From an uncultured candidatus Porisulfidus sp. (lineage in GTDB: Bacteria > Pseudomonadota > Gammaproteobacteria > Poriferisulfidales > Oxydemutatoraceae), in assembly GCA_965215125.1 (NCBI GenBank), contig OZ244052.1:1-64000 (forward strand): a DNA stretch of 64,000 nucleotides, given 5' to 3'. Positions 44,301 through 62,370 of this stretch are shown here, in pieces. Both the position numbers and the translations under genes were made by a program. The notes under the pieces were generated by a model. It saw only the letters and a program-made list of their open reading frames with translations. It made no database searches and was not told where the DNA came from. The first letter of the stretch is position 1; each line of letters begins with the position of its first letter.

Positions 44301-47300
44301 ACCACTAGCTTGAGGTGCCGTCAAAGTGAAACTTCTGCCTTCGGTGGTGGCTATCACATTATCGGTAATCGTTTCATCTCCTGCAATGCCGATTTCTCCC
44401 GAAACTACCAGTGTCCTATTTCTCAAACTCAGTGTATATTCGGTCTCGGTGGCAGGAAAGACTTCTCTCACCGTGATTGTTACAGTTGTTTCCCCTACAT
44501 TTTCCAGAGGAATACCGTCGCTGACATCGGCGGTATCACGCATGCCGGCGAAGTAATCCGTACTATCTCCTTGTTCGCGCACACTGATTTGCGAGTCGCC
44601 CTCGTAAGCCTTTAATCTTAATGTTAAGTTCGGTGTCTCATTGCCAAAACTTACATCATAACGGGTAATTTCGGAGGCAAAAACTTTATCCAATTCAATG
44701 CCGTCGCTTATTATTTCCAAGTCTCTCAAACCGTCATTTTGATCCGGCAGGAATGTGCCGCATTGCGGTAGATTGGTTCTTTGGGTTTGTAGGTCGTTCG
44801 AACAATCCTCCACATATTTTAGAATCGGGAATTGCTCGGATGTGCCGAAATCCCAAATGTCGGTACTCCAATCGTTATATAACTCGGAGCCGGCGGTGCC
44901 GGGTGCGGTCGGCAATTTTAGTATAGATACAGTCTGCGTAGTGTAAGAAGTGCGGATTAAAAAGTCTCCCATGATATCGGCAATCTTGGTACCCGTTGCA
45001 TAGACATTGATAAGCGTGCCTGTTGTAGAAGCACTACCTAGGCTTCCCACGAGTGCGCCCTCGTAGTCTTCTCGTTGATAGCCTCTGGTATAAGCATTGT
45101 TAATATGAATGTCGGCATGACCCAGCAAATGCCCCGAATGCAACGCATTCCCTATCAAATCAACCCTCGCATAGACATTTTCATATTGAGGATTTTCATT
45201 GTTATCGGTCGTCGTGGCACGGCCTACCAAACCACCCAGCGTATCAACCGTTCCTTCAGACGACAAGGTGCCGGTGACATAGCTGTTCGCTATCAGACAA
45301 TTCCGGCACGCAGCGGCTAAGCCACCGTTATCACCGCCTCGGGTTTGAATATCTACATCAAGTAAACCGATATTGTAAATCGCAAGCGGATCCTTGCCGG
45401 TGTTGTCTATATTGCCGAATAAACCACTATAAGTAGCGGTGCTTTGATACAGATTGGAGATTGTATAGCCGTTGCCTTCAAATAGCATCGGCGCACTAAC
45501 GGTCGTTTGGCTATTGCTACCGATCGGCACCCAGCCTTCGTTGCTTTTGCTTTCATTCGGCTGCCATAGAACCTGATTAGCCGTTGAGCTATAGCTGTTA
45601 TCTATGCCGAAGTCTAAATCTCTTATCAACTCGTAGCCTCTGCACACCGTGCTACCATTATCGTTATAGCCACAACCCGCTTTTATCACCCTCGCTTGAG
45701 TGCTTGTTCTATAGCCGCTACCATCTAATTGATAACGGATTGCATCCAAGTCCTCAAGGTAATAAACCTCTATCAACCCGTCGTCGTCTGTGTCTATGTC
45801 CGGTCGATAATCTGCAGGTGTGGGGTCGCTATAAGCGATATCGCTTACATAGCCTTGCCGGTCGGTGTAGCGCACACCGACGCGATAGTTAAAGGTAATG
45901 GGATACTCCAGCTGTAGTATCGTATAAGTTTTCGTTGTTGCACCGTCAATATCCACCCATTCGTCGGCATCTACGGCTTTACGCTGCCACTGATAGCCGA
46001 TATCATTCTCGCCGGGATTGCCGTCCGAATCTTCGATATCCTCCGTAGCGTTTAATTTAGTACCGTCTGCCGTCAACTCAGGTGTTCGTTCCCAAGTATC
46101 GTTATTTGTCTTACCGACCTTTAGCACTACGCTGCGGACAGTACTGGAAGTACCGTCCCCCACCGTTAGGGTGAACACCACCGTGCTAGATGTATAATTG
46201 CGCCCTATAAAATCCGCGGGTATGGTCACGGTCAAAGTTTGAGTGGTGGTATCCGACAGTTGCAAATTTGGGTTTAGTAACTGCGAGGAATTTTCCGGCG
46301 TCACCGTCCATTCGTAGCTAGGCGTGCGGATACCACCACTCACTTGAGGTGCCGTCAAAGTAAAACTTCTGCCTTCGGTGGTGGATATCACATTATCGGT
46401 AATCGTTCCATCTCCTTTAATGCCGATTTCTCCCGAAACTACCAGTGTCCTATTTATCAAAGTAAGTGTATATCGAGTCTCGGTGACAGGAAAGATTTCT
46501 CTCACCGTGATCGTCACGGTTGTTTGCTCTGTGCCCGTCAGGGAAATATCGTCGCCGACATCGGGGGTACTACGCATGCCGGCAAAGTAATCCGTACTAT
46601 CTCCGTGTCTGCGGACACTGATTTGCGAGTCGCTCTCGTAGGCCTTTAATCTTAATGTTAAGTTCGGTGTATCATCGTTAAAACTTACATCATAGTTGGT
46701 GATTTCGGAGGCAAAAACTTTATCCAGTTCAATGACCTCGCTTATTATTTCCAGGTCTCTCAAACCGTTGTTTTGGTCCGGCAGGAATGTGCCGCATTGC
46801 GGTGGGTCGGTTCTTTCGGTTTGTAGATCGTTCGAGCAATCCTCCACATATTTTAGAATCGGGAATTGCTCGGATGTGCCGAAATCCCATCTGTCGGTAC
46901 GCCATCCTATATATAATTCAGGGTCGGAAGTACCGGGTCCGGTGGGTTCTTTAAGTTCATTGTGCCGGGATGGTACTCGGGCGTAACTATTGGAAATACC
47001 GGTTTGATTATTATCTTTTATATTTCCTAGATTATTTGCTGCGTAGCTATTCTCAATAAAGCTATTACTCTCCGACAGTATCGCACCTACCGACAGTCCG
47101 GTGACAGATCCTGTTACATAGCTGGAAGCAATCCGAGCATCACCTCGACCATATAATCCACCACTTAATCTCCCTTGAATATTTACATTCGCATAGCTAT
47201 TTATTATTTGACCTAAGTCATTGCCTGCAAAACCGCCTATCTCTTGGTTTCCTACTATAGTACCTTTGACATAACTATTTCTTATAATCCCGATACCCAG

Positions 47301-48497
47301 GCTGCCGGCAAACCCACCTGCTATACCACTACTCATAATATTGATATTCACTCCGAGCAAACCAAGATTGCGGATTATTCCCGATGATCCTCTCAACTGC
47401 CTAAATAAACCCTGACCTCCCTGATTACGCACGATACGCAAACCAGAAATTGTGTTGCCGTTACCCTCCAATGCCGTAGCTAAACTATCTATCGGGGACC
47501 ACCCTGCTCCTTCAGTCCAAGTCGCTTTATTGCTTAAGTCTTGATAGTGTGCATCGTTGCCGAAATCCAGATGCCTGGCGATTTCATATCCGTCGCAGGT
47601 GCGGCGAGTGCCATCTTCGTCGCAACCCGAACTATTAAGGTCTATATCATCGGAGAGGGTCGGTTGATAGCCGCTGCCGTCCGTTCGGTAGCGAATTGCA
47701 TCCAAATCCTCAAGGTAGTAAATCTCTATCAATCGGTCGTCGTCTATGTCTACATCGGTTCTGTATGTTCCGAATTGTTCCGTAACCGTATACCCCTGCG
47801 CATCGGTATAGCTCAATTCCACGCGATAGCGAATGGTTGGGGTGGTGCCTTCCGGTACCGTGTAAGCGGACAGTGTTCTCGTGGTGGTTTCCGTTTTGAC
47901 ATCACGCCATTGCGTGTCGCTTAAAGCCAGAGATTGCCACGAGTATGTGAACTCGCCGTCGCCGTCTGCATCCGAGATACTATTTACAACGGCGGTTATG
48001 GAAGCGGTCGTACCCGATATATTTGAATTCAATTTCAGATTTACATCGAGGGTGGGAACAAAGTTGGGCTGCTTGATAATCGTCACTATGCTCTCGGTGC
48101 TTGCCGTAGAGCCGGCTTCGCCGACCGTCATCGTGAACACTACGGTGCTAGAAGTATAATCGCGCCCTATAAAATTCGCGGGGATGGTGACAGTCAAAGT
48201 TCGGGTGGTGGGATCCGACAGTTGCAAATTCGGATTCAACAGCTGCGACCGGTCGCGCGGTCGATATTCCCACCGATAAGAATAGTTTTCGCTATTCCCG
48301 CTGCCACCGGCAATTGCATCGCCGGGGAGGCTTAAAGTCAATTCCTCGCCTTCGTTTGCCGAACCTTCAATCGTAATCCCCTTTTGCAGAGTGATATCGG
48401 GATTCTCCGAGGGTACTTGCCCAAGCGCAGACTGACACGGCAGAACTGCAAGTAGAATAAATCGTGCTACGAATATAGGTTTTAATTTCATTTGCAT
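32325..48497 (-). CDS. Giant (5390 aa) secreted repetitive surface protein / putative adhesin with GLUG-like, cadherin-like and Ig-like domains
   Basis: Sec-type signal peptide, many VGGLVG motifs, DxDxDGLIEI Ca-binding-like motifs, YxWQ Ig-like modules, four near-identical ~680-aa units. Confidence 0.85.
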   Translation of the reverse strand: MQMKLKPIFVARFILLAVLPCQSALGQVPSENPDITLQKGITIEGSANEGEELTLSLPGDAIAGGSGNSENYSYRWEYRPRDRSQLLNPNLQLSDPTTRTLTVTIPANFIGRDYTSSTVVFTMTVGEAGSTASTESIVTIIKQPNFVPTLDVNLKLNSNISGTTASITAVVNSISDADGDGEFTYSWQSLALSDTQWRDVKTETTTRTLSAYTVPEGTTPTIRYRVELSYTDAQGYTVTEQFGTYRTDVDIDDDRLIEIYYLEDLDAIRYRTDGSGYQPTLSDDIDLNSSGCDEDGTRRTCDGYEIARHLDFGNDAHYQDLSNKATWTEGAGWSPIDSLATALEGNGNTISGLRIVRNQGGQGLFRQLRGSSGIIRNLGLLGVNINIMSSGIAGGFAGSLGIGIIRNSYVKGTIVGNQEIGGFAGNDLGQIINSYANVNIQGRLSGGLYGRGDARIASSYVTGSVTGLSVGAILSESNSFIENSYAANNLGNIKDNNQTGISNSYARVPSRHNELKEPTGPGTSDPELYIGWRTDRWDFGTSEQFPILKYVEDCSNDLQTERTDPPQCGTFLPDQNNGLRDLEIISEVIELDKVFASEITNYDVSFNDDTPNLTLRLKAYESDSQISVRRHGDSTDYFAGMRSTPDVGDDISLTGTEQTTVTITVREIFPVTETRYTLTLINRTLVVSGEIGIKGDGTITDNVISTTEGRSFTLTAPQVSGGIRTPSYEWTVTPENSSQLLNPNLQLSDTTTQTLTVTIPADFIGRNYTSSTVVFTLTVGDGTSSTVRSVVLKVGKTNNDTWERTPELTADGTKLNATEDIEDSDGNPGENDIGYQWQRKAVDADEWVDIDGATTKTYTILQLEYPITFNYRVGVRYTDRQGYVSDIAYSDPTPADYRPDIDTDDDGLIEVYYLEDLDAIRYQLDGSGYRTSTQARVIKAGCGYNDNGSTVCRGYELIRDLDFGIDNSYSSTANQVLWQPNESKSNEGWVPIGSNSQTTVSAPMLFEGNGYTISNLYQSTATYSGLFGNIDNTGKDPLAIYNIGLLDVDIQTRGGDNGGLAAACRNCLIANSYVTGTLSSEGTVDTLGGLVGRATTTDNNENPQYENVYARVDLIGNALHSGHLLGHADIHINNAYTRGYQREDYEGALVGSLGSASTTGTLINVYATGTKIADIMGDFLIRTSYTTQTVSILKLPTAPGTAGSELYNDWSTDIWDFGTSEQFPILKYVEDCSNDLQTQRTNLPQCGTFLPDQNDGLRDLEIISDGIELDKVFASEITRYDVSFGNETPNLTLRLKAYEGDSQISVREQGDSTDYFAGMRDTADVSDGIPLENVGETTVTITVREVFPATETEYTLSLRNRTLVVSGEIGIAGDETITDNVIATTEGRSFTLTAPQASGGSGMPDYEWTVTPEDSSQLLKPNLVLSSTSVAVLTVRVPANFIGRDYTSSTVVFTLTVGDGTFSTDRRVVLKVNKINNDTPQRDPRWVEDGISLNAIEDIEDPDGNPGDSDIGYQWQRKAIDADEWMDISGASSETYTILQPEYPITFNYRVGVRYTDAQGYLSDIAYSDSTPADYRPDIDTDNDGLIEIYYLEDLDAVRYRLDGSGYRTSTQATVIKAGCGYNDNGSTVCRGYELIRDLDFGIDNSYSSTANKVIWQPNDGKSNEGWVPIGSNNQTTVSAPMLFEGNGYAISNLYQSTATYSGLFGNIDNTGKDPLAIYNIGLLDLDIQTRGGDNGGLAAACRNCLIANSYVTGTMSSEGTVDTLGGLVGRATTTDNNTNPQYENVYARVDLTGNALHSGHLLGHADVRVNNAYARGYQQETYEGALVGSLGSDFTTGTLINVYATGTKIADIMGDSLVRTSYTTRTVSILKSPTAPGNTDSELYEKWTTDNWDFGTSEQYPILRYNSGSYDYEACSDQAPTQNTDQPQCDTFLPDQNDGLRDLEIISDGIVLDEVFASEITNYSVGFSNDTPNLTLRLKAYEGDSQISVREQGDSTDYFAGMRDTADVSDGIPLTGIEQTAVTITVREVFPITETEYTLTLMNRTLIVSQQIGITGDVMIAENVVSTTEGRSFTLEPPRIEGGFGAYRYNWAAMPENPSQLLNSKLQLRDTTNRTLTVTIPENFIGRNDTSSTVVFNLTVGDGTSSTVRSVVLKVNKINNDTSQRNPRWVEDGISLNAIEDIEDPDGNPGDSDIGYQWQRKAIDADEWMDISGASSETYTILQPEYPIAFNYRVGVRYTDAQGYLSDIAYSDSTPADYRPDIDTDNDGLIEIYYLEDLDAVRYQLDGSGYRTSTQATVIKAGCGYNDNGSTVCRGYELIRDLDFSVDSSYSSTANKVIWQPNGRKSNEGWVSIGSNSQTTVSAPMLFEGNGYAISNLYQSTATYSGLFGNIDNTGKDPLAIYNIGLLDLDIQTRGGDNGGLAAACRNCLITNSYVTGTMSSEGTVDTLGGLVGRATTTDNNANPQYENVYARVDLTGNALHSGHLLGHADVRVNNAYARGYQRETYEGALVGSLGSDFTTGTLINVYATGTKIADIMGDSLVRTSYTTRTVSILKSPTAPGDTDSELYRDWAADNWDFGTSEQFPILKYNKSGNSNYIACSSVLGLRMQSTDQPQCGTFLPDQNDGLRDLEIISDGIVLDKAFASEITRYDVSFGNETPNLRLRLKAYEGDSQISVREQGNSTDYFAGMRDTTDVSDDISLENVGETTVTVTVREVFPATETEYTLTLINRTPIVSGEIDIAGDGTITDNAISTTEGRSFTLESPRLSGGSRTYNYRWNIMPEDSSQLLNPNLVLSSTSIAVLTVRVPDDFIGRDYTSSTVVFTLTVGDGTFSTDRRVVLKVNKINNDTPQRNPRWVEDGISLNAIEDIEDADGNPNEDDIGYQWQRKAIDADEWMDISGATMETYTAPPEYPITFNYRVGVSYTDRQGYLNDIAYSEPTPTDYRPDIDIDNDGLIEIYYLEDLDAVRYRLDGSGYRTSTQARVINSGCGFDDNGSTVCRGYELIRDLDFGVDNSYSSTANKVIWQPNDGKSNEGWVSIGSNSQTTVSAPMIFEGNGYAISNLYQSTATYSGLFGNIDNTGEDPLAIYNIGLLDVDIQTRGGDNGGLAAACRNCLIANSYVTGTMSSEGMVDTLGGLVGRATTTDNNANPQYENVYARVDLTGNALHSGHLLGHADVRINNAYARGYQRETYEGALVGSLGSASTTGTLINVYATGTEIADITTNSLVRTAYTTQTVSILKSPTAPGNIDSELYEKWTTDNWDFGTSEQYPILRYNSGSYNYEACSDQAPTKSTDQPECVTFLPDQGIGLRDLNILAPTVTRTDSVFVSDRTEYTLWIRDTEERAQLELNGYDFRGIITIDGVGTATGSTMTTVALPKDTSVQNIIVADAASTAYTLTIIKTADIAGTGEITLEPMPSEDGTVDEGSTIELTSDIVGGDYRWTQPGVRALEILEQNAATITVRVLDDFVAADATTRNTVLTLTVTDLIEGDSRSISRILTIKKIDNGPAEIDFVGEFGNRQLTAIVGDDPDGNATEYRYQWQSRAPDSNSWTPVASTTTALRMVDYQIPADTTTATRYRVAVQYTDAQGYRTDEVAGNYLYRAGDNDDNDNGFIDIYTLEDLAATKSGTLQSRNRYELRRNLDFNDPLSYADTRNMNLWSANDDRSNPGWEPIPRVNGFSSYTFDGNGYTISNLYINRASTIALFRQVNVGSIISNIGLINVDIRGNNSVSGLIAFSGGMINSSYVGGSVKIGGNANTGGLVGQNGGIIADSYVIATSGTIVGLGDNTGGLVGYNFSVGTIRNSGTNVEVRGNAGVGGLIGRNEGAVRNSFARGSVTGNRHIGGLIGRSINRFGRRIVVINSYSTGDVIEGDVGSGSPNLGGLIGLPDRSIGFTPFIAAENSYTISKVIPNPNNNRRIGGLLGNKVLLGENDDTVASYWNSDVYTEGDRRPTDDDETSKTTMELQSPIDAIGIYRQWSTDNWDFGDETTYPMLRYDPASCNLDSDTARCGLLPNQQYETGLGALFLLSNGEVLNPDLRLGNQPFSVLRENYSIGILNRDEVQLRPFAVGGDDAEIKIIRDRDSRNYFSGKSSGQPSNSIPLDLDVATTVSIVVTDGDINTTYTLVMRRYDIETTSTVVDEGDEITLNTSAIGDSRSWSFIPPDSVDILSGQGTATLQVKIPDNFVPGGIETTMATLVFEVNIVDGATTYTPRETLRVNKINNGMPPDISLEVSSTTLSIVVGEGTDSDGEGEFMYTWERLHVENGRKERNEVSTSPEYRLPDTDNGSTRYFVNVTHTDGQGFTTEYADRESFILEPIKRTDIGIDDDDDGLIEIYYLDDLDAIREHLTEMPATCGQNNDQPCEGYELQRSLNFSSNDSYIGEVNRAWISTFTSSPPGWQPIGSIETPFNTVFTAATDNLFIDRLYINRPEEDNIGLFGVIGPRAKILDIQVRDPNISGRYAVGGLVGVTSRLTDSEGSVTESSLIANSSVVFTQLFRVGLNATRAWLGGLVGSNYGSIVNSYTQVRLNGDFAVGGLAGYSFGPISDSYALSFFSIPAASGIQGTDIITAGNAVGGLVGYNHSESPFKGGGSITNSYATNSVLGDFDVGGLVGYNDAGTIDNSYALGHVVGGTNVGGLVGYNSNGTIVGYAGNIVTGANNVGDLVSPESGGTVTALSTTPTLTYTGNFDGNGYSSCVVADGQTDYRVTLPACDTLLPEQDSRIGIGTPALSGVTLSVGTLEPEFDPVINAFSSFNGYEIFDIPENTTKITVTATTNIPNANLFVNVRGVRVQDNVMSSTTRENNSRTISRTIPVDDIRRVTTISIERGSARDYAIVIPAQPKLSGIPRMPCRADTIDRDGDGLIEICDLEGLYAMRYRLDADAMPKTCGERNDSACRGYELVRDLDFDKDESYRNPSENKPIWTTGKETDRGWRPIGNPSNPFNVEFSATTSHSIANLMIDRDFIRNYTGLFGYTGRNARIVNIELSDANVSGRYLTGGLVGRNEGTIINSRVTSASTVTLRNAWGGGLVGDNAGIINDSYTHSDVTGIDQIGGLVGINTGRITNSIAESDVLGVTFAGGLAGVNAGNINNSYASGTLTSITVVAFGATRVDRNFYYAGGLVGLNVGVIADTYSIGNIDGSERVGGLVGDNRNLIASSYAAVGNVVGTRLVGALVGINSGSIIDSYGDQSSRYNLVGENLPIGTIRNSETLTDDMNLQSRSSISGWRAVNWDFGTNMQYPALKYLRSETDPVDCERCGMLLQGQAMRPDFSLRVAEGESATLIETPEMPSDYMLRVDLNADNVRLIPDANIENATIRFQYRVDNEEDRMTMTENRQPFTAMIPSTARTITITLLFQDQNTNELISYRRVVDIHRVIRTQIRLFPEGLLNP
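38565..46761 (-). repeat. Four intragenic tandem units of about 2.05 kb
   Basis: Anchor (GLRDL coding, caaacc on +) at 46761, 44727, 42675, 40614 and 38565 gives periods of 2034, 2052, 2061 and 2049 nt, all multiples of 3. Confidence 0.92.
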
Positions 48498-51848: not shown

Positions 51849-52766
51849 TTACAAATGCCGGATGATTATTTTGTGTTTGTCGGCTATTGCCTCTGCCATA
51901 TGATGGCGGTGACAGCATGTGTGATCTTGCTCAAAGCAAGTGATGGCTACTCTTCGGTGCTGCCGAATGATTTTCACTACATCCTGCAATGCTTGCTTTT
52001 TATCGGTTTGGCTTAAGGTTTTTCGGTATTGATCGAACAGTTGATTATACTCAATGCGAGATTTAATATTCTTTCGCAGATCTCCCTTAATGCCTAATTC
52101 CGGGATATGGATATAAGCTATTCCGAACCTGCCGGTTATATCTTGTAGTTGTTTTTTAGAAAAGCCTTTTTTAATGCTAAAAGGATTATACCTAACATCT
52201 ATCAGTGCAGAGATGCCGTTATCGATTAAGCCTCTCAGATATTGTTCTATACTTTTTCCTTCGTAGCCTATGGTGTAAAGCGTTAAATACTTGTTCTTTA
52301 TCTGTGGTTTTTCTTTAGATATATAACGGCGCAACGGTTTAAATTTCGGTTTGTCCAGAAGCTCGCTATTGATTGCGTAGTACGGATACTTTTTATATAC
52401 CTCGTAGATAAGGGCATCATTGGAAAGTTTTCCATACTCATCAAAGATAGTGTCTAGATACTCTTCATCCTCCGGTTTCAAGTTGATCACCCCTTTAATT
52501 TTCTTATTATTTACAATGTATGCTTTGTCGTTTTTCGTTATCGTCAACAACCGATAATAATCGGCGAGTATCCGAGCATCTTCGTTAGCTTGAAATGAAT
52601 AACACCCATACTTATACGGTAAGAAATGATAAATCGGCTTCTCTTGCCGTTGGGTAAATAGAAAGAGCAACTTTTGCAAGCGGATTTTCTCCGTGCAATC
52701 TTTCCCGCGAGTCAGAATTGCCAGCAACACACGCCTGCGGTAATACAAAGTCTTGGGGAAATTCAT
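51849..52766 (-). CDS. DUF488-family protein with N-terminal winged-helix/antitoxin-like domain
   Basis: C-terminal TIGYEG, DVRYNPFSIKKGFSK, PELG, CFEQDHTCCHR; N-terminal LQKLLF..FLPYKYGCYS. Confidence 0.75.
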   Translation of the reverse strand: MNFPKTLYYRRRVLLAILTRGKDCTEKIRLQKLLFLFTQRQEKPIYHFLPYKYGCYSFQANEDARILADYYRLLTITKNDKAYIVNNKKIKGVINLKPEDEEYLDTIFDEYGKLSNDALIYEVYKKYPYYAINSELLDKPKFKPLRRYISKEKPQIKNKYLTLYTIGYEGKSIEQYLRGLIDNGISALIDVRYNPFSIKKGFSKKQLQDITGRFGIAYIHIPELGIKGDLRKNIKSRIEYNQLFDQYRKTLSQTDKKQALQDVVKIIRQHRRVAITCFEQDHTCCHRHHMAEAIADKHKIIIRHL

Positions 52767-52794
52767 TGCTTGAAAGCCTTCAGATAAAAGAAAT

Positions 52795-53358
52795 TTATGA
52801 TGCGGGAATCGGACATTTTAGAGATTTAAATGAAACCGTTCCCGGAGAGTAGACAAGTGTGAAACCTTTATTTTTATATTCATGGTACTCATACTGATGC
52901 TGATCCTTGATTGGTTTCTTATTCCTCGTTTCTGATAATCCTTTTGTAATAACTATATAATGCTCTTTAATTTCTATTTCTTCGGAAAAGTATATAGCCA
53001 CCATTGAAACCAGATATTTCCAAGCAGGGATAGTATAAAGTATCTGGTTACATGCTTTTTCAAAAGTACGGCTTTCTGCGCTACTTATAGTTTTCTTCAA
53101 TTCTATAAAATAAACATCTGTGGTACTAGTGTTGGGTACTATAATTAAATAATCGCATGACTTTGTATAATTCTTTATATTAGCTATTATCGCTGGATGA
53201 AGTTGGTTCGTTCCCGTTAGATTGATAGCAAGCCCTTCACTTGGTAGTCCTAATATATTGATTTCCATATCGTTACTTTTCTCTTCCAATTTAACACGAT
53301 TTTTAACAATCCTTTTATATCTCTCTGCTTTTAGCAGCTTTTCCATAAACTTAATCAT
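52795..53358 (-). CDS. Hypothetical protein, possible PD-(D/E)xK nuclease partner of the upstream ATPase
   Basis: SCDYLII...VYFIELKK...NQI pattern; 8-nt overlap with the ATPase gene. Confidence 0.5.
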   Translation of the reverse strand: MIKFMEKLLKAERYKRIVKNRVKLEEKSNDMEINILGLPSEGLAINLTGTNQLHPAIIANIKNYTKSCDYLIIVPNTSTTDVYFIELKKTISSAESRTFEKACNQILYTIPAWKYLVSMVAIYFSEEIEIKEHYIVITKGLSETRNKKPIKDQHQYEYHEYKNKGFTLVYSPGTVSFKSLKCPIPAS

Positions 53359-54745
53359 CTTCCAGCGTCTCTATATCTATATAGGTATTCAGTTCTCCGC
53401 ATATCAGGTTGATATTATCAATCGCATTATCAAAAACTGACATCTCTTTAATGCCTCTTTCGTCTATATTACATGGACTTAACTTCCCATCTTCACAGAT
53501 ATATGCTTTAACAGAATTAGGGTTCAAGCAATCATTCTCCGTATATTCTTTTTTATGCTTTTCAAGAAATTCTTTCTTCCCTTCAAAATTTCGATGCAAC
53601 ATAATCAAGTTATCAATTTCCTTGATTATATAATCACTGTGGGTTGTTATCAGTACCTTTATCCCATTGTTAACACAAAATGCCAAAAGCCGAGCCATTA
53701 AAACTTGATTGCTCGGGCTCAAATGGCTCTCGGGTTCATCAATAATAAGAATTTGCCCTGATATCGCAAGATGTTTTAAGTAAAAATATAAGCTCAAAAT
53801 CCCGCGAGCAGATGACGAAGCAAGATGTAAAGGTATCTCAAATCTATTTTTTCCTCTTTTATTGGAGATAAATTTAATTACATCTTTTTCTACTTTATAG
53901 TAGCCACCTATCATATTCTTTACTAAACTCACTGCATCCGTTGTCAATCCATTTTTCTGTTTTGCAACATACAATAAATCCCTAATGAAATCTACGTTGT
54001 GCTGTATAGATATCGCATAGCGTGCACTCGCTTTTTCAATAAACTCAATTGGGTCAAAATCTTCGGTATCTGATAATCTTTGTAGCTCCTGAACCAGTCT
54101 ATTTCTAGTAAAATCTAATTCTTTATAAAAAAGCGAGATGCCAAACCTTTCGGCAGGTAGAATAAATGGTTCAACACTATCCTCTCGGACCATTTTTTCA
54201 AAGAAAATATGTGGTTTTTTAAGTTGACTTGGGAATGTAGCATATTCTGGATTATCAATCTTAAATTTTAGATTTTCACTTTGAGAGAAGTATTTTATTA
54301 ATGCTTTTGCACCCTCGGTATTCCGTATTGGAATTTCTCCTTTTATTAGTTCATTTTCTTCTTCAAACCGAAAGCTAGCTTTTTCAAATTCGTTTTTCGG
54401 ACAACTAAAAACCTGATGAATAATTCTTTGTGAAAAAAGTTTGGATGCTGCCTTCATCAACCAATTACTCATATTCCGGTATTCAGCAAGAGTTATTTCT
54501 GCCGACCCTGTCGCTTCTATTTGCTGAGCAGTTTCTTTAATTTTTACAAAATATTCCTCAGGGTATTTTCCGAGCCTATAGAAAAGATTAAATCCACTAT
54601 CTTTCCAAAAATCTAAAAAGCCATAGAGTGTATAAACCAAATAGGTTTTACCGGTGTTATTTTGCCCGGCAATAATGGTTAAATCCCCCAGTTCCAATTC
54701 GGCATCTTTAATCGGACCGATATTTTGAAATCTTGCTTTAATCAT
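53351..54745 (-). CDS. ABC-type (AAA_15/AAA_21-like) ATPase
   Basis: NIGPI, GQNNTGKT, PAERFG, ASSSAR, LIIDEPESHL, TTHSDY. Confidence 0.85.
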   Translation of the reverse strand: MIKARFQNIGPIKDAELELGDLTIIAGQNNTGKTYLVYTLYGFLDFWKDSGFNLFYRLGKYPEEYFVKIKETAQQIEATGSAEITLAEYRNMSNWLMKAASKLFSQRIIHQVFSCPKNEFEKASFRFEEENELIKGEIPIRNTEGAKALIKYFSQSENLKFKIDNPEYATFPSQLKKPHIFFEKMVREDSVEPFILPAERFGISLFYKELDFTRNRLVQELQRLSDTEDFDPIEFIEKASARYAISIQHNVDFIRDLLYVAKQKNGLTTDAVSLVKNMIGGYYKVEKDVIKFISNKRGKNRFEIPLHLASSSARGILSLYFYLKHLAISGQILIIDEPESHLSPSNQVLMARLLAFCVNNGIKVLITTHSDYIIKEIDNLIMLHRNFEGKKEFLEKHKKEYTENDCLNPNSVKAYICEDGKLSPCNIDERGIKEMSVFDNAIDNINLICGELNTYIDIETLEDD

Positions 54746-54792: not shown

Positions 54793-57603
54793 TCAACCGG
54801 TGATTTGCTCTTGGTTCTGTTGATTATTAGCATATTCTGCTAGAACATCTATTATCTCGGCAGGCTCTTTTGCGATCTCAAAAGCCCACACCCCGTATTT
54901 GCCATCTTCGTTGACCGCTTGAACCCACTCCTTCATATATCTATGCTTTTCGTCGTTCCTAGCTATGTCCGGTTGCCATCCCTTTACTTCAAGTACGAGA
55001 TGCTGTCCGGATTTCAACCGAATGATAAAGTCGGGATAATATCTTCTAAGCACACCATTGTGAACATAAAGTACACTGAAACCAATGTGGTCGTTTTTGA
55101 CCCATGCGTCTATCATTGCATCTCTATCTAATTGGAATGTACTAAAGCCTTCCCACCTACTATCAAAAACGCACCGATTGATATGGCTTTTTTTGGTTAT
55201 CTTGGTCGGCTTCCCGGTGCGCCACGGACGCATATCCCCGGTTGAGCAGATAGGATGGTTGCTATCAAGCACCAACGATGTTTTTTCGGTGTTGTCCTGC
55301 TTGATTGCATCCCCAAAATGGCGTATGACCGATGTCATCTTAAGTGCTATCACAAGTTTTCTTCTTAATTCATTGTTATTATAGGATTTAGGCTTCACTT
55401 CGATAAGATCCGAGTTGATAAATTGTTCGGCTAGCCGCACGAGCTCGGCTATCAGTATCGGTTCGGGGATTTTCCAGTCGAGTTTGATTTCTTCGTACAC
55501 CGACTGGGCTGCCTTGAAAATCAATGTCTGCTTTCTATTTGTTCGCATAAACTCTTCAAGATCTATATCTCGTATTCTAGAAATATCGGGTTTACCGCCT
55601 ACAGTCTCAGCCATCTCTACTATTTCTATAATTTCGGTTGCATCGATCGGCAGTGGATCAACTTTTTCCCAATCTACCGAAAGCCTATGCTTATAAGCTC
55701 TATCTATTCTGATAACATTCGGCCATTGAATAGCAAATTTTTGCTTTGAATCTAGCGGTTGAACGGTAATTTTATTACCCTTACCCCCACCTCCGCCATC
55801 ATTTGTTCTTTCGTGTGGTAAAAAAGTAAACGGCACACCGAATACTTCAACATATTCCGGCTCGAACAAACCGGTGTCTTCGTTAACATCGTAACATGAA
55901 CGACGCAACCCTCTGCCTACAACCTGCTCGCATAATAACTGGCTGGTAAATGCCCGCAATCCCATGATATGTGTGACCGTATGCGCATCCCACCCTTCGG
56001 ATAGCATATCTACCGAGATAACATTTTGTATCTTTTCTCCCGGCTTACCCTCTTGTCCGACAGTATTTACTTTTTCTCTGAGCGTTTCCACTTTTGCCTT
56101 TTTCGTAGCCCTCGCTTTTGGTGTTTTGTCTCCTTCGTCGGTTTCCGTAGGACTCGATTCCATCGCTTCCTCTTTTTTCAGCACCTTTGAATCTATATGC
56201 AAAATACCGTCTTGGTTACAAAACAACTCCGAATCCGTTATGTGCTTATGCCTAAACGCATGCGCAATGCGCTCCGCCGTTTCCGTTCTATTGGTAACCG
56301 TAATCATTACCGGAGGGGTTGGCGCATCAGCCCATTCTTTCTTTACTTTATCCCAATCCGCTCCGAGTAAAAAATAGGCATTCTTAATCAGTTGAGGCAA
56401 CGGTTCATGAGATCTAGCTTTACGATTTAAGTCGGCTTTAACATCGGGGTCGCTATATATATGGTAGAGCCGAGATTTGTTAGTTCCTGAATCCGATAAT
56501 GTATCATCGTCAATAGCGATGTGCGGTGTTTTAACCAAACCGGCTTCAATCGCATCGTTCAACCCGAAATCACTGACAATCCATCTAAACAAAGACTCCT
56601 CGGTTGTTCTATTGCTACCGGGTGCAAACGGTGTTGCGGAAAAATCAAAGCAAGTCAAAATACCTTGTGCTTCGTGCAGTCGGTCAAGCCCACCCACCCA
56701 GATAGTTGCCTCCTCTTCTTCATCCTTTTTGATACCTTTCATCGACGAACCTGCAGGAATACGCCATGCGTGGTGTGCTTCGTCGTTGATAACGATAATG
56801 TTTTTGGCTTTTGCCATATCACCGAGCACATCTCGAGCATAGGCATTGTCGCTTTTGACACTGCGTTTATCTACGCTCTTTTTCTTGTTAATTTTCTCTT
56901 CGCTGTCCCACTGGAGTGCGTGCCAGTTGCGTATCAATACCTTTGCCTGTGCAAGTTTCTCTCTTAAAGACACCGGCACAACATCAAATTCCTCATAATA
57001 GTTTTTAGGCTCGGAAGGCATGAGTACCGAAAGACGCTCTCTAACCGTCAAGTTCGGGGCAACAACGAAGATATTCTTAGAGAAGCGACCGTCATTGGGA
57101 TAAGTTGCCTTGTTGATTACTTGCCAAGCAATCAACATTGCCATCACGACCGTCTTGCCGGTGCCGGTAGCGAGTTTGGAACACAAACGGCGAAACGATC
57201 CACCGTCACCCTCAACATCAATACCGGTTTTTTCCGAATCGGGTGTTTCAATCAGCCATATTAAGGTTTCAATCGCCTCAATCTGACAAAAGAAAAACCG
57301 ACGCTCTCGTCGCTCTTCGTCTTGCCAATGCTCAAGTAGTGCTTTGGTGACACCGGTAATGCCCGGGCGACCGGCATCACGCCATTTATCTACACGCTGC
57401 CGAATCTTATTAACTAAAGGCAACTCTATGAATACCCCCATATCTTGATAAGGTTTCGTTGCCCTAGGGTCGGAGACTAAATAGCCCGCCGAGCGACGCT
57501 TGTCTACGAGTTCGGGAGGAGAATCGCTATCGGAAAATTTCCAGTGTTTTGACGGGTATTTATACGGTGAATTGATGATAAGACTAGATTTCATACTTTG
57601 CAT
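54793..57603 (-). CDS. res: Type III restriction endonuclease Res subunit (SF2 helicase + PD-(D/E)xK)
   Basis: FFCQIEA, LATGTGKT, NDEAHH, DFSATP, MLSEGWD, EQVVGRGLRR, YYPDFI..LEVKG. Confidence 0.9.
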   Translation of the reverse strand: MQSMKSSLIINSPYKYPSKHWKFSDSDSPPELVDKRRSAGYLVSDPRATKPYQDMGVFIELPLVNKIRQRVDKWRDAGRPGITGVTKALLEHWQDEERRERRFFFCQIEAIETLIWLIETPDSEKTGIDVEGDGGSFRRLCSKLATGTGKTVVMAMLIAWQVINKATYPNDGRFSKNIFVVAPNLTVRERLSVLMPSEPKNYYEEFDVVPVSLREKLAQAKVLIRNWHALQWDSEEKINKKKSVDKRSVKSDNAYARDVLGDMAKAKNIIVINDEAHHAWRIPAGSSMKGIKKDEEEEATIWVGGLDRLHEAQGILTCFDFSATPFAPGSNRTTEESLFRWIVSDFGLNDAIEAGLVKTPHIAIDDDTLSDSGTNKSRLYHIYSDPDVKADLNRKARSHEPLPQLIKNAYFLLGADWDKVKKEWADAPTPPVMITVTNRTETAERIAHAFRHKHITDSELFCNQDGILHIDSKVLKKEEAMESSPTETDEGDKTPKARATKKAKVETLREKVNTVGQEGKPGEKIQNVISVDMLSEGWDAHTVTHIMGLRAFTSQLLCEQVVGRGLRRSCYDVNEDTGLFEPEYVEVFGVPFTFLPHERTNDGGGGGKGNKITVQPLDSKQKFAIQWPNVIRIDRAYKHRLSVDWEKVDPLPIDATEIIEIVEMAETVGGKPDISRIRDIDLEEFMRTNRKQTLIFKAAQSVYEEIKLDWKIPEPILIAELVRLAEQFINSDLIEVKPKSYNNNELRRKLVIALKMTSVIRHFGDAIKQDNTEKTSLVLDSNHPICSTGDMRPWRTGKPTKITKKSHINRCVFDSRWEGFSTFQLDRDAMIDAWVKNDHIGFSVLYVHNGVLRRYYPDFIIRLKSGQHLVLEVKGWQPDIARNDEKHRYMKEWVQAVNEDGKYGVWAFEIAKEPAEIIDVLAEYANNQQNQEQITG

Positions 57604-57609
57604 TATAGG

Positions 57610-57981
57610 TTAAGGGATTAAATTTTCCTTCGGTACGAAAAAAGGCGGCATCTCACACCATACAACATGTCCCTTTCTAATCCAATAATGACATCTACAC
57701 GAATGTCTGGTAACAAATATGGAAGGATTGAGAGTCAATGTGCCGTTTTTATGTTCCTGAACCTTCCATCTCCTAACAGAGTCCGCAGAGACTTCCAAGT
57801 GAATGATTTTCTTGCATTTTTTCTTAGGACAGGTAATCGCAGCATAAAAAGGATATTTCCGCCCCCCTATGATATAGATTGTATTTTTCTCTATATTGTC
57901 GGGTAGATCCTCAACCCATTTTGTCCTATATCGCTTTTTGAGCCTTTGAGTGTAGTTGAATATCTTAAGTAAGTATCTTAT
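57610..57981 (-). CDS. DUF6527-like protein, 123 aa from a non-canonical ATA start
   Basis: Frame is open from ATA at 57981: VEDLPD..IYIIGG..ITCPKKKCKKIIHL..W..TLNPSI..CRCHYWIRKGHVVWC. SD AAGGAGG lies upstream. The ORF track caught only the last 62 aa. Confidence 0.7.
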   Translation of the reverse strand: MRYLLKIFNYTQRLKKRYRTKWVEDLPDNIEKNTIYIIGGRKYPFYAAITCPKKKCKKIIHLEVSADSVRRWKVQEHKNGTLTLNPSIFVTRHSCRCHYWIRKGHVVWCEMPPFFVPKENLIP

Positions 57982-59378
57982 GATTTTTTCCTCCTTTTTA
58001 AGTTTTGAATTAGCATACTCCCTTCTCCCGTACCTAGATATTTCTTAAAGACAGAACCGTCGTCGCTTTCATTCTCTTGATTCAAATAACACCCTTGAAC
58101 CAACTGGAATGTTTGAGTGCCAAATTTTGAATTATCGTCTAATCTAAAATTATGGAGCCGCGCCAAAAAATCGTTAAATGCCAAACAAGCCGCCTGCATA
58201 TTAACGGACATTACGGCAGGTTGATCTTCCACAACACCTTTCAAGTACCCTTCTTGTATCCGTTTTTTGTAATGTTTCACATCATCACGCTTTAACCTCT
58301 CTGCCGTAACCTGCTCGCTCGTATAAACCCCTCTATCTAATAAGCTACAACTATCGGGATGTATATATCGGGAAACGGCATTCGCCTGAGAAATACCACC
58401 TTTGCCATCGGACTCTAAATAAACACCGACATCAAAATAAGGAATCAAATATGCCTTAGAGATACACTCCAGATGATAGCGCCCTGCTGCAGAATCCACA
58501 CAACCAAAAACAATATCGCAATCAACCAAAGACTCTATGGAGCCTTTATCGTAAGTATCCAATTTATGTATTTCCACATTTACATTCATATCCATTTTTT
58601 CAATCGCTCGCCGCAAAACTTCAACTTTGAATACACCTTTTTTTGCATCGCTTTTTTGGGAGTTCATAATGCGGTTAAGGTTTTTTTCTTCTACGACATC
58701 CGGGTCTATCAATACTAAACTGCCTATACAGTTACGCGCTAAAAGTTCAACTATGATGCTGCCGGTTCCCGAACACCCCACCACACCGACTTTCAATAAG
58801 CGAAGTAAATCAAAAGTTCCTTTACCGAAAGTCTGCGATATTCTGGTTGCATAACCGGGAATTTTACTTTTTGATTTGGTCTGCTTCCATATCTTAATAT
58901 TTTCACCGACAACCGATACACTTTCTACAAGAGTAAACTCTCCGTGCTCATTGTATGTTCTAGCTTTGATGCTACCGTCCGGAAGCATAATCGCCGAACC
59001 GTTGAGTCGATTATCGTCAAACCACGCGGATATTGAATGAAACAAAGCTCTATCATTTTCATCGTCGGTTATCGAGAAATCATTGCAACCCTTCGGATGA
59101 CTATGGATAGTAAATACCGAGAGTTTCTTTTTATCTATTTGATCTATCTTTTGAGGTGGCATATATTGGGAAAACGGCCAAGATACATAAATCGGAGTTT
59201 GTTTCTCGTATTCGGACGGTGGAATTAGTATCGCCTCTCCGACTATCAGTCTAGTGCTTTGCAATCCTATCCCCGATGCGCAAAGCATAACTGCAGCGGC
59301 TTCCAACTTATCCCCCGAATGTAGATGATCTTTTAAGGTTTTATGGGTAGCTTCGCCGAGTACTAGAGATGTATACAT
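57978..59378 (-). CDS. JAB/MPN peptidase-ThiF/E1 fusion (BubCD-like)
   Basis: JAB E..HSHP..FSITDD; E1 VVGCSGTGS, DPDVVEEKNLNR, GCVDS..R, FDVGV, EGYL..PAV. Confidence 0.88.
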   Translation of the reverse strand: MYTSLVLGEATHKTLKDHLHSGDKLEAAAVMLCASGIGLQSTRLIVGEAILIPPSEYEKQTPIYVSWPFSQYMPPQKIDQIDKKKLSVFTIHSHPKGCNDFSITDDENDRALFHSISAWFDDNRLNGSAIMLPDGSIKARTYNEHGEFTLVESVSVVGENIKIWKQTKSKSKIPGYATRISQTFGKGTFDLLRLLKVGVVGCSGTGSIIVELLARNCIGSLVLIDPDVVEEKNLNRIMNSQKSDAKKGVFKVEVLRRAIEKMDMNVNVEIHKLDTYDKGSIESLVDCDIVFGCVDSAAGRYHLECISKAYLIPYFDVGVYLESDGKGGISQANAVSRYIHPDSCSLLDRGVYTSEQVTAERLKRDDVKHYKKRIQEGYLKGVVEDQPAVMSVNMQAACLAFNDFLARLHNFRLDDNSKFGTQTFQLVQGCYLNQENESDDGSVFKKYLGTGEGSMLIQNLKRRKKS

Positions 59379-59390
59379 TTATAAACCCTA

Positions 59391-59783
59391 TTAAGCCTCA
59401 TTTTTTAATGTGTCCTCTACCCAAGACAAATGATATACAACATTATGGTGGTTAGGATTCCATTCATAGTGCCTAGACCATCTCTGCCAATTTTTATTAA
59501 AATGATTTTCATCGGCAAGACAAGCGATTGCTTCCCCGTCCGTGCGAACTATAGCGGGAGAAAAATAAAACATATCTATTTCAACGACCGGGTAGTCAGT
59601 TGGAATGATTATCATCAGGTCGGATTTTTCAGGCGTGTATTTTGAAGAGGGTAATGGATAATCGCAAATAATTATGCCATACTCGCCGCCTTCGGAGACC
59701 GGTTTCCAACAACTAAAATTTGCATTTAGATATTCTATGTCTTCTTCAGACAACCTCTCTTTAAGTAAATCATGTTCTGCCAC
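59391..59783 (-). CDS. Prokaryotic E2-like (E2/UBC fold) protein, BubB-like
   Basis: DYPLP..Y, IPTDYP..IDMFYFSP, WQRWSRH..W; lies between the Ubl and E1 genes. Confidence 0.82.
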   Translation of the reverse strand: MAEHDLLKERLSEEDIEYLNANFSCWKPVSEGGEYGIIICDYPLPSSKYTPEKSDLMIIIPTDYPVVEIDMFYFSPAIVRTDGEAIACLADENHFNKNWQRWSRHYEWNPNHHNVVYHLSWVEDTLKNEA

Positions 59784-59785
59784 CT

Positions 59786-60523
59786 CTAACCTTGTTGTGC
59801 TTGTTTCATAACCGTCTCAAAACGTTCAACTCCTTCCTCAGCAAAATCCACAATCTCTTCCGGTTCTATAGATTTTCTAAGTCCGCCACTAAATTTTCGA
59901 TTAAGCGACCATTCGCTATAATTTTTTCCTGCTAGGCTTAAAATTTCACGACCTTCCCTCTCTCGCTTATCCACTATGTACTTTTTTTTATCAATCTTGA
60001 TTTCATATTTGTCAAATTTCGGAGGTATGCGTCCCTTTTTTGCACACTCTTCCAAATCAACTGAATCATCGTCGCCGGAAGGCACCGTAAAATACACATC
60101 GGTCTCTTGAACAACGAGAGTCATATCATCTTGTATCAAATCGTCGGTTTTGCCTGCTACATCTGCAAACAGTTTAGGTGATTCCAATTCCTCGTCTCTG
60201 CACGAAATATCATTGCCGATTAACTTTACTTTCTCTAATCCTTGTTCAATCTTCTTGCCGTTGAACTCAAAACGTACAGGGTTTCGGACCGAAGGGTTAT
60301 CTCCTATATCCTCGTTAATGTTATCAACAAATATATCCTCGCCACCGTGAATAATGATGTAGTCATCGGGTAATAACGGAATATCTATATCTCCGGATTT
60401 ATTGAGATAAAGACATTTCTCATCGGACTTGATGCCCGAATTTTCGTATAATTTACCTACTTGTGTAAGCCCTTTTTCTCTTTCTGTTTGCTCACCGGCT
60501 AACATTATTGTAACTTTGCTCAT
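59786..60523 (-). CDS. Multi-ubiquitin-domain protein (about three Ubl domains, C-terminal Gly)
   Basis: Three beta-grasp-like repeats; last unit YEIKIDKKKY..GREILSLAGK..GVERFET ends QAQQG. Confidence 0.82.
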   Translation of the reverse strand: MSKVTIMLAGEQTEREKGLTQVGKLYENSGIKSDEKCLYLNKSGDIDIPLLPDDYIIIHGGEDIFVDNINEDIGDNPSVRNPVRFEFNGKKIEQGLEKVKLIGNDISCRDEELESPKLFADVAGKTDDLIQDDMTLVVQETDVYFTVPSGDDDSVDLEECAKKGRIPPKFDKYEIKIDKKKYIVDKREREGREILSLAGKNYSEWSLNRKFSGGLRKSIEPEEIVDFAEEGVERFETVMKQAQQG

Positions 60524-60524
60524 C

Positions 60525-61100
60525 TTAATTTCTCCGACTATGATTAGCTTGTGATTTTATCATATCCCCTCGGAGCCTGTTATATGCTTGTTGAGAAGTT
60601 AGAATATCCGCACCTTTCCTGCGTCCACTGCTCGTAGGAATTCTCAGCAGCTTTTGGCGACGCACTCCTATTTGGGTTCCTTCGTCAATCATGTCCCTTC
60701 GGTCATTCGTAATCAAAATACGACCTTGCTTGAACGCTACATAAACAAAAAATTTATCGGTTCCCGGTTTGCCTTGAGGTTCGGAAATGATTCCTTTAAT
60801 ACCCACCATCAATTTATCATTAAGATAAACTGTTATACATTTATGGTTTTCAGGTTTCACCCAATAACGGAGCAAGCGTCTCTTTTTAGAGTCATCATTA
60901 ATCTGCTGAATCCTTTTGGTTAAGCGCTTATGATATTCATCGGTGATTCTTCTTTTATCATCTACCAACAGCTTTATTTTGTCATTACATAGCTGCTTTA
61001 ATAATTGGTCAATATGCCTGTTTGTATTTTCCCGAGGGTTTAATAAATGCTCAAAAATATTGGTATCTATTGCAATAGAATCCTTTGTTAGGTTATCCAT
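60525..61100 (-). CDS. PIN-like domain protein
   Basis: IAIDTNIF, EY, DKFFVYVA, ILITNDRRD acidic PIN pattern. Confidence 0.65.
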   Translation of the reverse strand: MDNLTKDSIAIDTNIFEHLLNPRENTNRHIDQLLKQLCNDKIKLLVDDKRRITDEYHKRLTKRIQQINDDSKKRRLLRYWVKPENHKCITVYLNDKLMVGIKGIISEPQGKPGTDKFFVYVAFKQGRILITNDRRDMIDEGTQIGVRRQKLLRIPTSSGRRKGADILTSQQAYNRLRGDMIKSQANHSRRN

Positions 61101-62370
61101 CTCGATCGTCGGACGCCCCCATATTTAGCTCCTCTATCAAATCGGCACCGAAAAACTCCATAGGTAATCCCTTTTGCATAGTTCCATCATCTTTGATAGT
61201 AAGATTGGTGACCGTAGGTATTTTTTCGTCATAATTAAAATAAGCGATTGAAACATCCTTGGGCGATATATGTCCTTTGACAACATGGTTACGAATTCTC
61301 AACAGAATATTCTCGCTATGGGTCTCAATAATTGACCCGACCTTGCGTTCTTTCCATAAATCAACAAAGAAACTTCCCATTTCAATTTGGGCGGTCGGAT
61401 GAATTTGTGCTTCGGGTTGTTCAACGATCAACTGCGAATAAGAGTTCATCAAAAGCCCTTGAACAAATACCGGCATACATTGGCTAACACCGAAACCAAA
61501 ACAAGATAGATTAACTTTGGCTTTGCCCATTTCGTGTATTGCTGAACATGCGGCGAATTGATTTTCCAGCTCCTTTATAGTGATGTAATCTATGTTTAAT
61601 ACCTTTTTAGCATGCTTAATTAAAAGCTCTCTCTTCTTTTTATTCTCGAGAATTTTCTCTCTCCATAATTGAAAAACCGTATCCTCTCCCATTTTTCCTA
61701 CATATCTATTAGGATGTGGATGGTATATCGGAGCAAATCCTTCCAGCTCTTCTCTAGCAGCTGCTAAATGTTCTAAAGATTGAATATCTCCTGTAAGTTT
61801 TTCTACACATCTTCTCATAACAGAGTCTAATACCAATTCATCTATCGGTTCATTTTTAGAAATTGACTCATTTATTTCTATTGGTTCGTCTGTGGAATAA
61901 AGAAATGTAGAATTTGATGAAATATCCGATGACCCTTCTAAAAAGCGTTTACCTTTCCCTAATAAATTTATTTTTTGCTTACCCGAAAATATACCATTTT
62001 TGTTATATGGGGTTATTACCTTAACCTCGTATTCTCTTATTATGTCGCTTATCTTATGTTCTTTGAGAAAGTTAAAAAAATAGCCGCTAGGGCTATCATA
62101 TTCATCATCAACCTTCAAAGAAAAAGTAAGATTAGGTAATCTTCTATTTTTGTTTTTTAGTTCATAAAATACGCCGAGATCAGTTTCTTCACCACTGGTA
62201 GTCAAGAAACTTCTAGTGTTTGTGGTTGATTGCTTAAGCATCATCAAAAACTTAATAATAGAGGATTTTCCCGAATTGTTTTTCCCTATCAGAATAGTAA
62301 TAGGACGAAATCTCACGGTGACTTTATCTCCGAATAAACGAAAATTAGACAATTTAAGCTCTTTGATCAT
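61093..62370 (-). CDS. ABC-type ATPase with DUF3696-like C-terminus
   Basis: LSNFRLF, GKNNSGKSS, GFGVSQ, VEQPEAQIHP, ETHSE, IKDDG..PMEFF. Confidence 0.85.
   Translation of the reverse strand: MIKELKLSNFRLFGDKVTVRFRPITILIGKNNSGKSSIIKFLMMLKQSTTNTRSFLTTSGEETDLGVFYELKNKNRRLPNLTFSLKVDDEYDSPSGYFFNFLKEHKISDIIREYEVKVITPYNKNGIFSGKQKINLLGKGKRFLEGSSDISSNSTFLYSTDEPIEINESISKNEPIDELVLDSVMRRCVEKLTGDIQSLEHLAAAREELEGFAPIYHPHPNRYVGKMGEDTVFQLWREKILENKKKRELLIKHAKKVLNIDYITIKELENQFAACSAIHEMGKAKVNLSCFGFGVSQCMPVFVQGLLMNSYSQLIVEQPEAQIHPTAQIEMGSFFVDLWKERKVGSIIETHSENILLRIRNHVVKGHISPKDVSIAYFNYDEKIPTVTNLTIKDDGTMQKGLPMEFFGADLIEELNMGASDDRDG

Follow-up and report, generated by a model that had tools for sequence, protein, structure and literature searches.

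The bacterial ubiquitin-like conjugation operons known as Bub form a first point of reference: on DUF6527 proteins, BubE and BubCD we found only one preprint (10.1101/2024.11.21.623953) and its companion preprint, and we found no solved structure of BubE. According to the available portion of the former, BubE (DUF6527) is a protease of the Ser-His kind that has a C4 zinc site and bears at its N-terminus a hydrophobic extension, truncation of which renders the protein insoluble, and BubE expression erased the conjugates of BubA with its targets, as would fit a negative regulator (10.1101/2024.11.21.623953). Translation starts at codons besides AUG, GUG and UUG form a second point of reference. 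In Escherichia coli, the part of Hecht et al. (10.1101/063800) consulted here gives infC and pcnB as the only confirmed cases, reports that AUA, AUC and AUU initiate at 1-2% of AUG in reporters, and describes an AUC start that gave an N-terminal Met. Here we describe a bubE gene without a canonical start codon (ATG, GTG or TTG) in an uncultured candidatus Porisulfidus sp., within a stretch of 64,000 nucleotides (nt) from contig OZ244052.1 of assembly GCA_965215125.1 (positions 1 to 64,000; hereafter the window). We suggest that its translation probably relies on near-cognate initiation next to the stop codon of the preceding gene, bubCD, which encodes a JAB peptidase fused to a ubiquitin-activating E1.

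The frame lies on the minus strand between bubCD and the res gene of a type III restriction system (table 1). It is open from 58044 to its stop at 57612-57610, the preceding in-frame TAA lying at 58047-58045, and over residues 47-109 it matches Pfam DUF6527 (PF20137) with an E-value of 1.3e-14 and 54.3 bits against a cut-off of 23.6. Twenty protein relatives of 105-140 amino acids were recovered, the best at 89% identity; in alignments of 21 and 11 sequences S87, H98, C51, C56 and C97 do not vary, and C95 is near-invariant (at least 90%). When compared with its nearest relative, locus L010 (88% amino-acid identity), the ratio of nonsynonymous to synonymous substitution rates (dN/dS) is 0.115 at a dS of 0.49, the differences falling 5, 11 and 27 times on the first, second and third codon positions, while the flanking C-terminal half of E1 and N-terminus of Res give 0.147 and 0.108. 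Far from a frame left open by chance, this is a real gene, and it is under purifying selection. Its sequence identifies it as bubE, which in type I Bub operons encodes a deconjugating Ser-His protease: by way of the shared Pfam domain, S87 and H98 would be the equivalents of S92 and H102 of Citrobacter BubE, and C51, C56, C95 and C97 form a predicted four-Cys zinc site. By analogy with the Citrobacter protein, to which knowledge of the activity is confined, the window BubE is predicted to remove the ubiquitin-like BubA from its targets.

An earlier note, made from the letters of the window, had proposed an intact hidden DUF6527 gene here, which the Pfam match above cut-off and the 20 protein relatives bear out, and had stated that no ATG, GTG or TTG stands ahead of 57798 in its frame, as the translation of the frame confirms. 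In the program-made list of open reading frames (ORFs), the sole canonical-start ORF in this frame is 57610..57798, which opens at the TTG of codon 62, downstream of the CPKKKC motif that holds C51 and C56. This TTG was considered as the bubE start and rejected: it would cost two zinc ligands and half of the domain. Moreover, the note had asked whether homologues begin near 57798, and none do, all 20 relatives starting upstream of CPxxxC.

At the junction, which on the minus strand reads TTAAAAAGGAGGAAAAAATCATAAGATACTTACTTAAG, a full-length Shine-Dalgarno (SD) sequence, AAGGAGG, lies inside the last codons of bubCD. It is followed by two adjacent in-frame near-cognate codons, ATC and, immediately 3' of it, ATA, the latter sharing two bases with the TAA stop of bubCD; the start region thus overlaps the E1 stop, as had been noted before. 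ATC follows AAGGAGG at a spacing of 5 nt, ATA at one of 8 nt and the TTA of Leu4 at one of 17 nt; in a crude survey 5-8 nt is a common SD spacing in this genome, and both near-cognate codons fall within it. The junction RNA is unstructured (fold z 0.08 against shuffled controls). On position, ATC and ATA appear equally good candidates for the bubE start. We consider it probable, from comparison of sequences, that bubE is translated by weak near-cognate initiation, offset by the strong SD and coupled to E1 termination: no canonical start yields the whole protein, relatives conserve the codon, and the SD stands at a working distance. Translation would begin at AUC, at AUA or at both, via the initiator tRNA, supported by the SD upstream, and ribosomes terminating bubCD at the overlapping stop would add to it. 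The output of BubE would then be low and fixed relative to the conjugation enzymes, keeping a negative regulator scarce; that of res would probably be low too, as it starts 6 nt after bubE and has no ribosome-binding site of its own. This 6-nt gap had been pointed out earlier, and holds (bubE stop at 57612-57610, res ATG at 57603).

The starts of related genes were compared among 71 loci from species-representative genomes, five metagenome loci and those of the window's own kin. Eighty loci carry a WVEDLP-type anchor, of which 73 are distinct and underlie all counts; L066, L080, L008 and L009 have no such anchor and were dropped, and L073 and L078, being too short, were left out of the tree, a quick version that is poorly resolved. 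Eighteen codons before the anchor Trp, ATG is found in 37 of the 73 loci, GTG in 12 and TTG in three, and 32 of the 73 show an [AG]TG-ATT junction in which the E1 stop overlaps the second codon. Only three loci (the window, L014 and L020) have no ATG, GTG or TTG at all from the in-frame stop upstream as far as the anchor, and all three keep the catalytic residues. Together with L010, L023, L039, L044, L051 and L068 they make up nine near-cognate loci, with AUC, AUU or AUA (AUH) at the junction. ATC, the homologue of the family ATG, is in frame in seven of the nine; at the next codon all nine have an in-frame ATT or ATA that the SD serves, the only such codon common to them all. For instance, the Bdellovibrionota-type loci L023, L039, L044 and L068 read ATC-ATT-AAC in the exact register of the family ATG-ATT, and L020 keeps ATC-ATT (AAAATCATTAAA), with its E1 stop 6 nt upstream of ATC instead of overlapping ATT. 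In L051 the only canonical codon, a GTG, falls inside the SD itself.

How the junction changed can be read from relatives with a canonical start. L084 (AAAATGATAAC) and L093 (ATGATAAGA) both show an ATGA overlap, and carry ATG-ATA where the window (AAAATCATAAGA) has ATC-ATA. Since their ATG stands at the place of the window ATC, the altered ATGA lies one codon upstream of ATA. A single G-to-C change at 57982 explains both the lost ATG and a one-codon extension of E1: in the window lineage the bubE ATG would have become ATC (ATGA to ATCA) and the bubCD stop TGA a Ser codon, TCA, with E1 then ending at the next codon, TAA. The earlier note had likewise seen a damaged ATGA here; it was right in kind, and wrong as to the place, one codon too far downstream, and as to the base. 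The G-to-A change that it envisaged at ATA finds no support, as L010 shares ATCATAA and sister loci carry ATT at that codon. In fact, because the L010 junction (AGGAGGAAAAAATCATAAGA) is the same as that of the window, ATA is not a recent change from ATG.

Wider searches extended this sampling. The metagenome scan returned five loci, three of them identical to L005, and a scan of viral sequences found no bubE relatives. Among 301 genomes of the order of G066, matches occurred in eight genomes at ten places: checked by sequence, L088 and L095 are repeats of L044 and L051, respectively, and L093 is an addition, its ATG-ATA being canonical; the match of L094 contains two stops; and the other six places correspond, by coordinates and identities, to L023, L068, L039, L025, L014 and L020. 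The plasmid collection PLSDB holds 22 records that match bubE, all below 60% identity. Four of the 15 plasmid matches listed (H2, H3, H10 and H11) have no annotated feature under the match; the PLSDB gene table may have gaps there, or gene callers may have missed bubE. Among the protein relatives, P0005 is called from a Met two residues ahead of the Trp anchor. A separate observation concerns L011 (3040-3140), where some 33 nt at the N-terminus of bubE are duplicated in direct tandem (GTGATTAAA...AACTTT, two copies); small duplications tend to arise in the bubE start region.

The near-cognate loci also differ in SD strength, taken as the best anti-SD duplex over positions -20 to -4 before the candidate start. 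Before the junction AUH codon this duplex ranges from -5.6 to -12.0 kcal/mol in all nine near-cognate loci (-11.6 in the window); for the 64 other loci, measured before their canonical starts, the median is +0.1 and the minimum -5.9. Seven AT-rich loci among these 64 lie between -0.9 and +1.7; as they too have no strong SD, base composition does not account for the difference. In the tree L025 falls inside the near-cognate group; it has ATG and no strong SD. The other genes of the window operon have weak SDs, none comparable to that of bubE. The downstream TTG codons of L010, L023, L039, L044 and L068, which a gene finder would pick as starts, have duplexes of only -3.8 to +2.0. A Mann-Whitney comparison of near-cognate with canonical loci gives p = 7e-7, a value that overstates the evidence because the loci are related to one another and come from two or three lineages.

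Several observations weigh against near-cognate initiation with a compensating SD. The association with SD strength rests on few independent events, nine loci from two or three lineages on a poorly resolved tree. AAGGAGG has a second role in coding for the conserved Lys/Arg tail of E1; of its 288 copies across the genome only 60 stand ahead of a canonical start opening 60 codons or more, and many are members of a repeat family. The 1-2% efficiency comes from reporters in E. coli, another organism than that of the window. Finally, codon 4 is TTG in L010 and TTA in the window, and MAFFT aligns that TTG with the Met of typical homologues; the window could have lost a working TTG only recently, and dN/dS would be blind to such a loss. 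The infC frame of this genome starts TTG-ATA and, a canonical codon being present, is uninformative on AUH use.

AAGGAGG was also tried as a genome-wide marker of starts and dropped, given the 60 of 288 copies before starts and the many copies in the repeat. That repeat, CTCC[GA]AAGGAGGGGAATGTACC, is short and occurs in many copies on both strands (e.g. G000:C1 near 11081, 66677 and 68011), and accounts for a large share of the 288. It looks like an element of the repetitive extragenic palindromic (REP) or miniature inverted-repeat transposable element (MITE) kind.

The TTG of L010 is the core of the most serious alternative, in which codon 4 was the start until a G-to-A change at 57970 (TTG to TTA) silenced or nearly silenced bubE in the window, leaving a young pseudogene or a switched-off negative regulator. 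Such a loss of the deconjugase would leave the conjugation arm active, and the L010 codon does lie 18 codons before the Trp anchor, where 52 of the 73 loci have ATG, GTG or TTG; gene callers start two relatives, P0002 (89% identical) and P0003 (70% identical), at the same codon. However, the L010 TTG stands 17 nt from the SD, and the duplex before it reaches only -3.8. TTG and TTA are synonymous Leu codons, and with 27 of 123 third positions differing between the two genes such a difference is expected of an internal codon. L014 and L020 are intact without a canonical start on long independent branches (0.16 and 0.42), the terminal branch of the window is short (0.022) with no decay, and contigs from two studies carry this allele. 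We thus regard a recent start loss as unlikely, if still deserving of attention.

The same contigs bear on the accuracy of the sequence. An error of sequencing or assembly at the start codon is tempting in that a single base would restore ATG or TTG, and the earlier note had advised checking ATA for it. Contigs from three runs in two studies read ATA like the window: those of X1 and X4 (one study, possibly the window's source) span the stretch with no differences, and those of X5 (a second study) cover 57300-58046, junction included, and 58168-58700, again with no differences, its record 4 (57713-58046) at depth 109; the agreement is at contig level. Furthermore, L010, an independent metagenome-assembled genome (MAG), has the same ATCATAA. 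An error is barely conceivable.

Recoding would dispense with a start codon altogether. As bubE lies in the -1 frame of bubCD and two AAA Lys codons precede the E1 stop, BubE could be made only as a C-terminal extension of BubCD, by -1 frameshifting or by transcriptional slippage on the A6 run (GGAAAAAATC). Yet the frame offset is 2 in the window and L010, 1 in L023, L039, L044 and L068, and 0 in L014 and L020, and the A run is not conserved among relatives. A canonical slippery heptamer has the form X XXY YYZ. The heptamer at the A6 run does not have this form, and no downstream structure follows it (z 0.08). The varying frame relation, the unconserved run and the fold score are not those of a programmed -1 frameshift; in addition, proteins of 217-2000 amino acids included no fused homologue, itself weak evidence. 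We judge recoding very improbable.

Beyond weak near-cognate initiation as such, one could imagine that the AUH start evolved as a means of regulation and is no scar. AUG would have given way to AUC, AUU or AUA, with a strong SD accompanying the change, in one clade of Bub cassettes that has spread across several phyla of sponge-associated bacteria, and BubE, with the coupled Res, would be held at about one percent in resting cells and rise when the fidelity of start-codon selection falls (e.g. on depletion of initiation factor 3 (IF3), under stress or when a phage takes over translation). Such a device would couple the balance of ubiquitin-like conjugation versus restriction to the state of the translation machinery. 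We hold this extension to be rather doubtful.

The gene context is that of a Bub operon inside a type III restriction cassette. On a single strand and tightly packed follow type III mod, an AAA_15/NsnB-like ATPase gene, a PIN-like gene, bubA, bubB, bubCD, bubE and type III res (table 1). The operon has the marks of type I: a JAB-E1 fusion, an E2 with Ser-x-His, and a ubiquitin-like protein (Ubl) with beta-grasp domains that ends in Gly and adjoins the E2. In BubB, S103-R-H105 aligns with QRWSRH of Citrobacter BubB, a Ser-x-His pair replacing the catalytic Cys; the available part of the preprint gives this pair as S333/H335 (10.1101/2024.11.21.623953). In BubCD, Y378 aligns with the Tyr in GY[IL]xGV of the 9ea4 chain, so that a crossover-loop Tyr replaces the catalytic Cys; we infer that the Citrobacter residue is Y370, assuming a two-residue chain offset (458 versus 456 amino acids). 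Adjacency of bubE and res recurs in 10 of 72 other distinct loci (L003, L004, L005, L007, L010, L011, L013, L017, L019 and L032), in which res starts at -32 to +31 nt from the bubE stop, without SD (-3.3 to +2.0 kcal/mol), and its translational coupling to bubE is plausible. In five of five genomes checked, mod (54-69% identity) and the ATPase gene (42-56%) stand directly upstream on the same strand; one of the five has the cassette divided between two contig ends. The word "restriction" does not occur in the main text of the Bub preprint (10.1101/2024.11.21.623953).

Table 1. Coordinates of the bubE junction, of bubE and of the genes of the surrounding cassette in the window.
Feature	Position	Strand	Basis or remark
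AAGGAGG Shine-Dalgarno sequence	57996-57990	minus	inside last codons of bubCD
ATC, near-cognate start candidate, positional homologue of family ATG	57984-57982	minus	junction register among relatives
ATA, near-cognate start candidate, overlaps E1 stop	57981-57979	minus	ATT/ATA here in 9/9 near-cognate loci
TAA stop of bubCD	57980-57978	minus	
AGA, codon next after ATA	57978-57976	minus	
TTA (Leu4 of bubE)	57972-57970	minus	TTG at same codon in nearest relative L010
TTG, first canonical start codon in bubE frame, codon 62	57798-57796	minus	downstream of Zn ligands C51, C56
bubE (predicted DUF6527 Ser-His protease)	57610..57984	minus	124 codons from ATC, 123 from ATA; stop TAA 57612-57610
Predicted BubE catalytic and Zn-binding core: S87 (57723-57721), C95, C97, H98 (57690-57688)	57688..57723	minus	alignment columns
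bubCD (JAB peptidase fused to E1), 466 amino acids	57978..59378	minus	Pfam Prok-JAB and ThiF; Citrobacter BubCD PDB 9ea4, E 7.6e-67
bubB (E2, family E)	59391..59783	minus	Pfam Prok-E2_E 9e-30; Citrobacter BubB 9eae_C, E 7.7e-17
bubA (multi-ubiquitin Ubl)	59786..60523	minus	Pfam Multi_ubiq E 8.4e-10; C-terminus ...QAQQG
Type III res	54793..57603	minus	Pfam ResIII; PADLOC REase_III; no SD, anti-SD dG +1.9
PIN-like gene	60525-61100	minus	upstream part of cassette
AAA_15/NsnB-like ATPase	61093-62370	minus	upstream part of cassette
Type III mod	62367 to past window end (64000)	minus	upstream part of cassette

Next to the cassette, at 51849-54745 on the minus strand, lie further defence genes, for PD-T4-4_A (E 3e-106), a PDC-M47B-like protein of 187 amino acids and a DUF488/PDC-M19A protein (E 3e-96), and the GC content here is 35-40%, compared with 46% for the genome; cassette, neighbours and low GC content look like an acquired defence island. 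Close relatives of this bubE come almost without exception from MAGs of many phyla, and their record titles include names of sponge symbionts (Poriferihabitans, Porisulfidus and Tethybacter), which suggests that the cassette has spread horizontally in a single type of habitat. Farther along the window, an ORF of 5390 amino acids (32325-48497, minus strand), with long internal repeats and an N-terminus resembling a signal peptide, probably encodes a giant surface or adhesin-like protein.

Confirmed bacterial starts at codons besides AUG, GUG and UUG are very few; here, nine loci, an apparently traceable single-base origin and a seemingly compensating SD single out bubE of the window as a further natural candidate for a near-cognate start, within a known operon family. 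In practical terms, gene finders will miss or truncate bubE at such loci, and a Bub operon can seem to be without its defining DUF6527 gene. As BubE counters conjugation, a throttled start suggests how the operon might set its ratio of writer to eraser, and coupling to res would tie that ratio to the restriction enzyme of the mod-ATPase-PIN-Bub-res cassette.

The closest described protein is BubE of Citrobacter sp. RHBSTW-00271 (type I Bub; 10.1101/2024.11.21.623953, in its available portion), with which the window protein shares the Pfam domain, the Ser and His, the four Cys, the hydrophobic N-terminal extension and the operon partners. The two differ in that the window bubE has no canonical start codon, and in the Cys pattern, C-x4-C ... 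C-x-C in the window against C57/C59/C61/C99 in Citrobacter, as compared through the published report and not by direct alignment. Moreover, the type I form of that preprint, as far as its available portion shows, is a BubAB fusion, whereas bubA and the E2 gene bubB of the window are separate ORFs, with no fusion, and, unlike the Citrobacter operon, that of the window is nested between type III mod and res. With the AUU starts of E. coli infC and pcnB, bubE would share, by analogy, a near-cognate AUH start for a protein that must stay scarce, and initiation at such codons is presumably limited by IF3 discrimination; in the window, on the other hand, the candidate codon is AUC and/or AUA, overlaps an upstream stop and follows a full 7-nt SD, and there is no evidence of autoregulation through IF3. 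The likeness to ATGA stop-start coupling, of which L084 and L093 are true examples, lies in the overlap of the start region with the upstream stop. In the window, however, a C replaces the G of ATGA, the overlap has become AUC-AUA-A with a TAA stop, and the junction is preceded by a strong SD that its canonical relatives lack.

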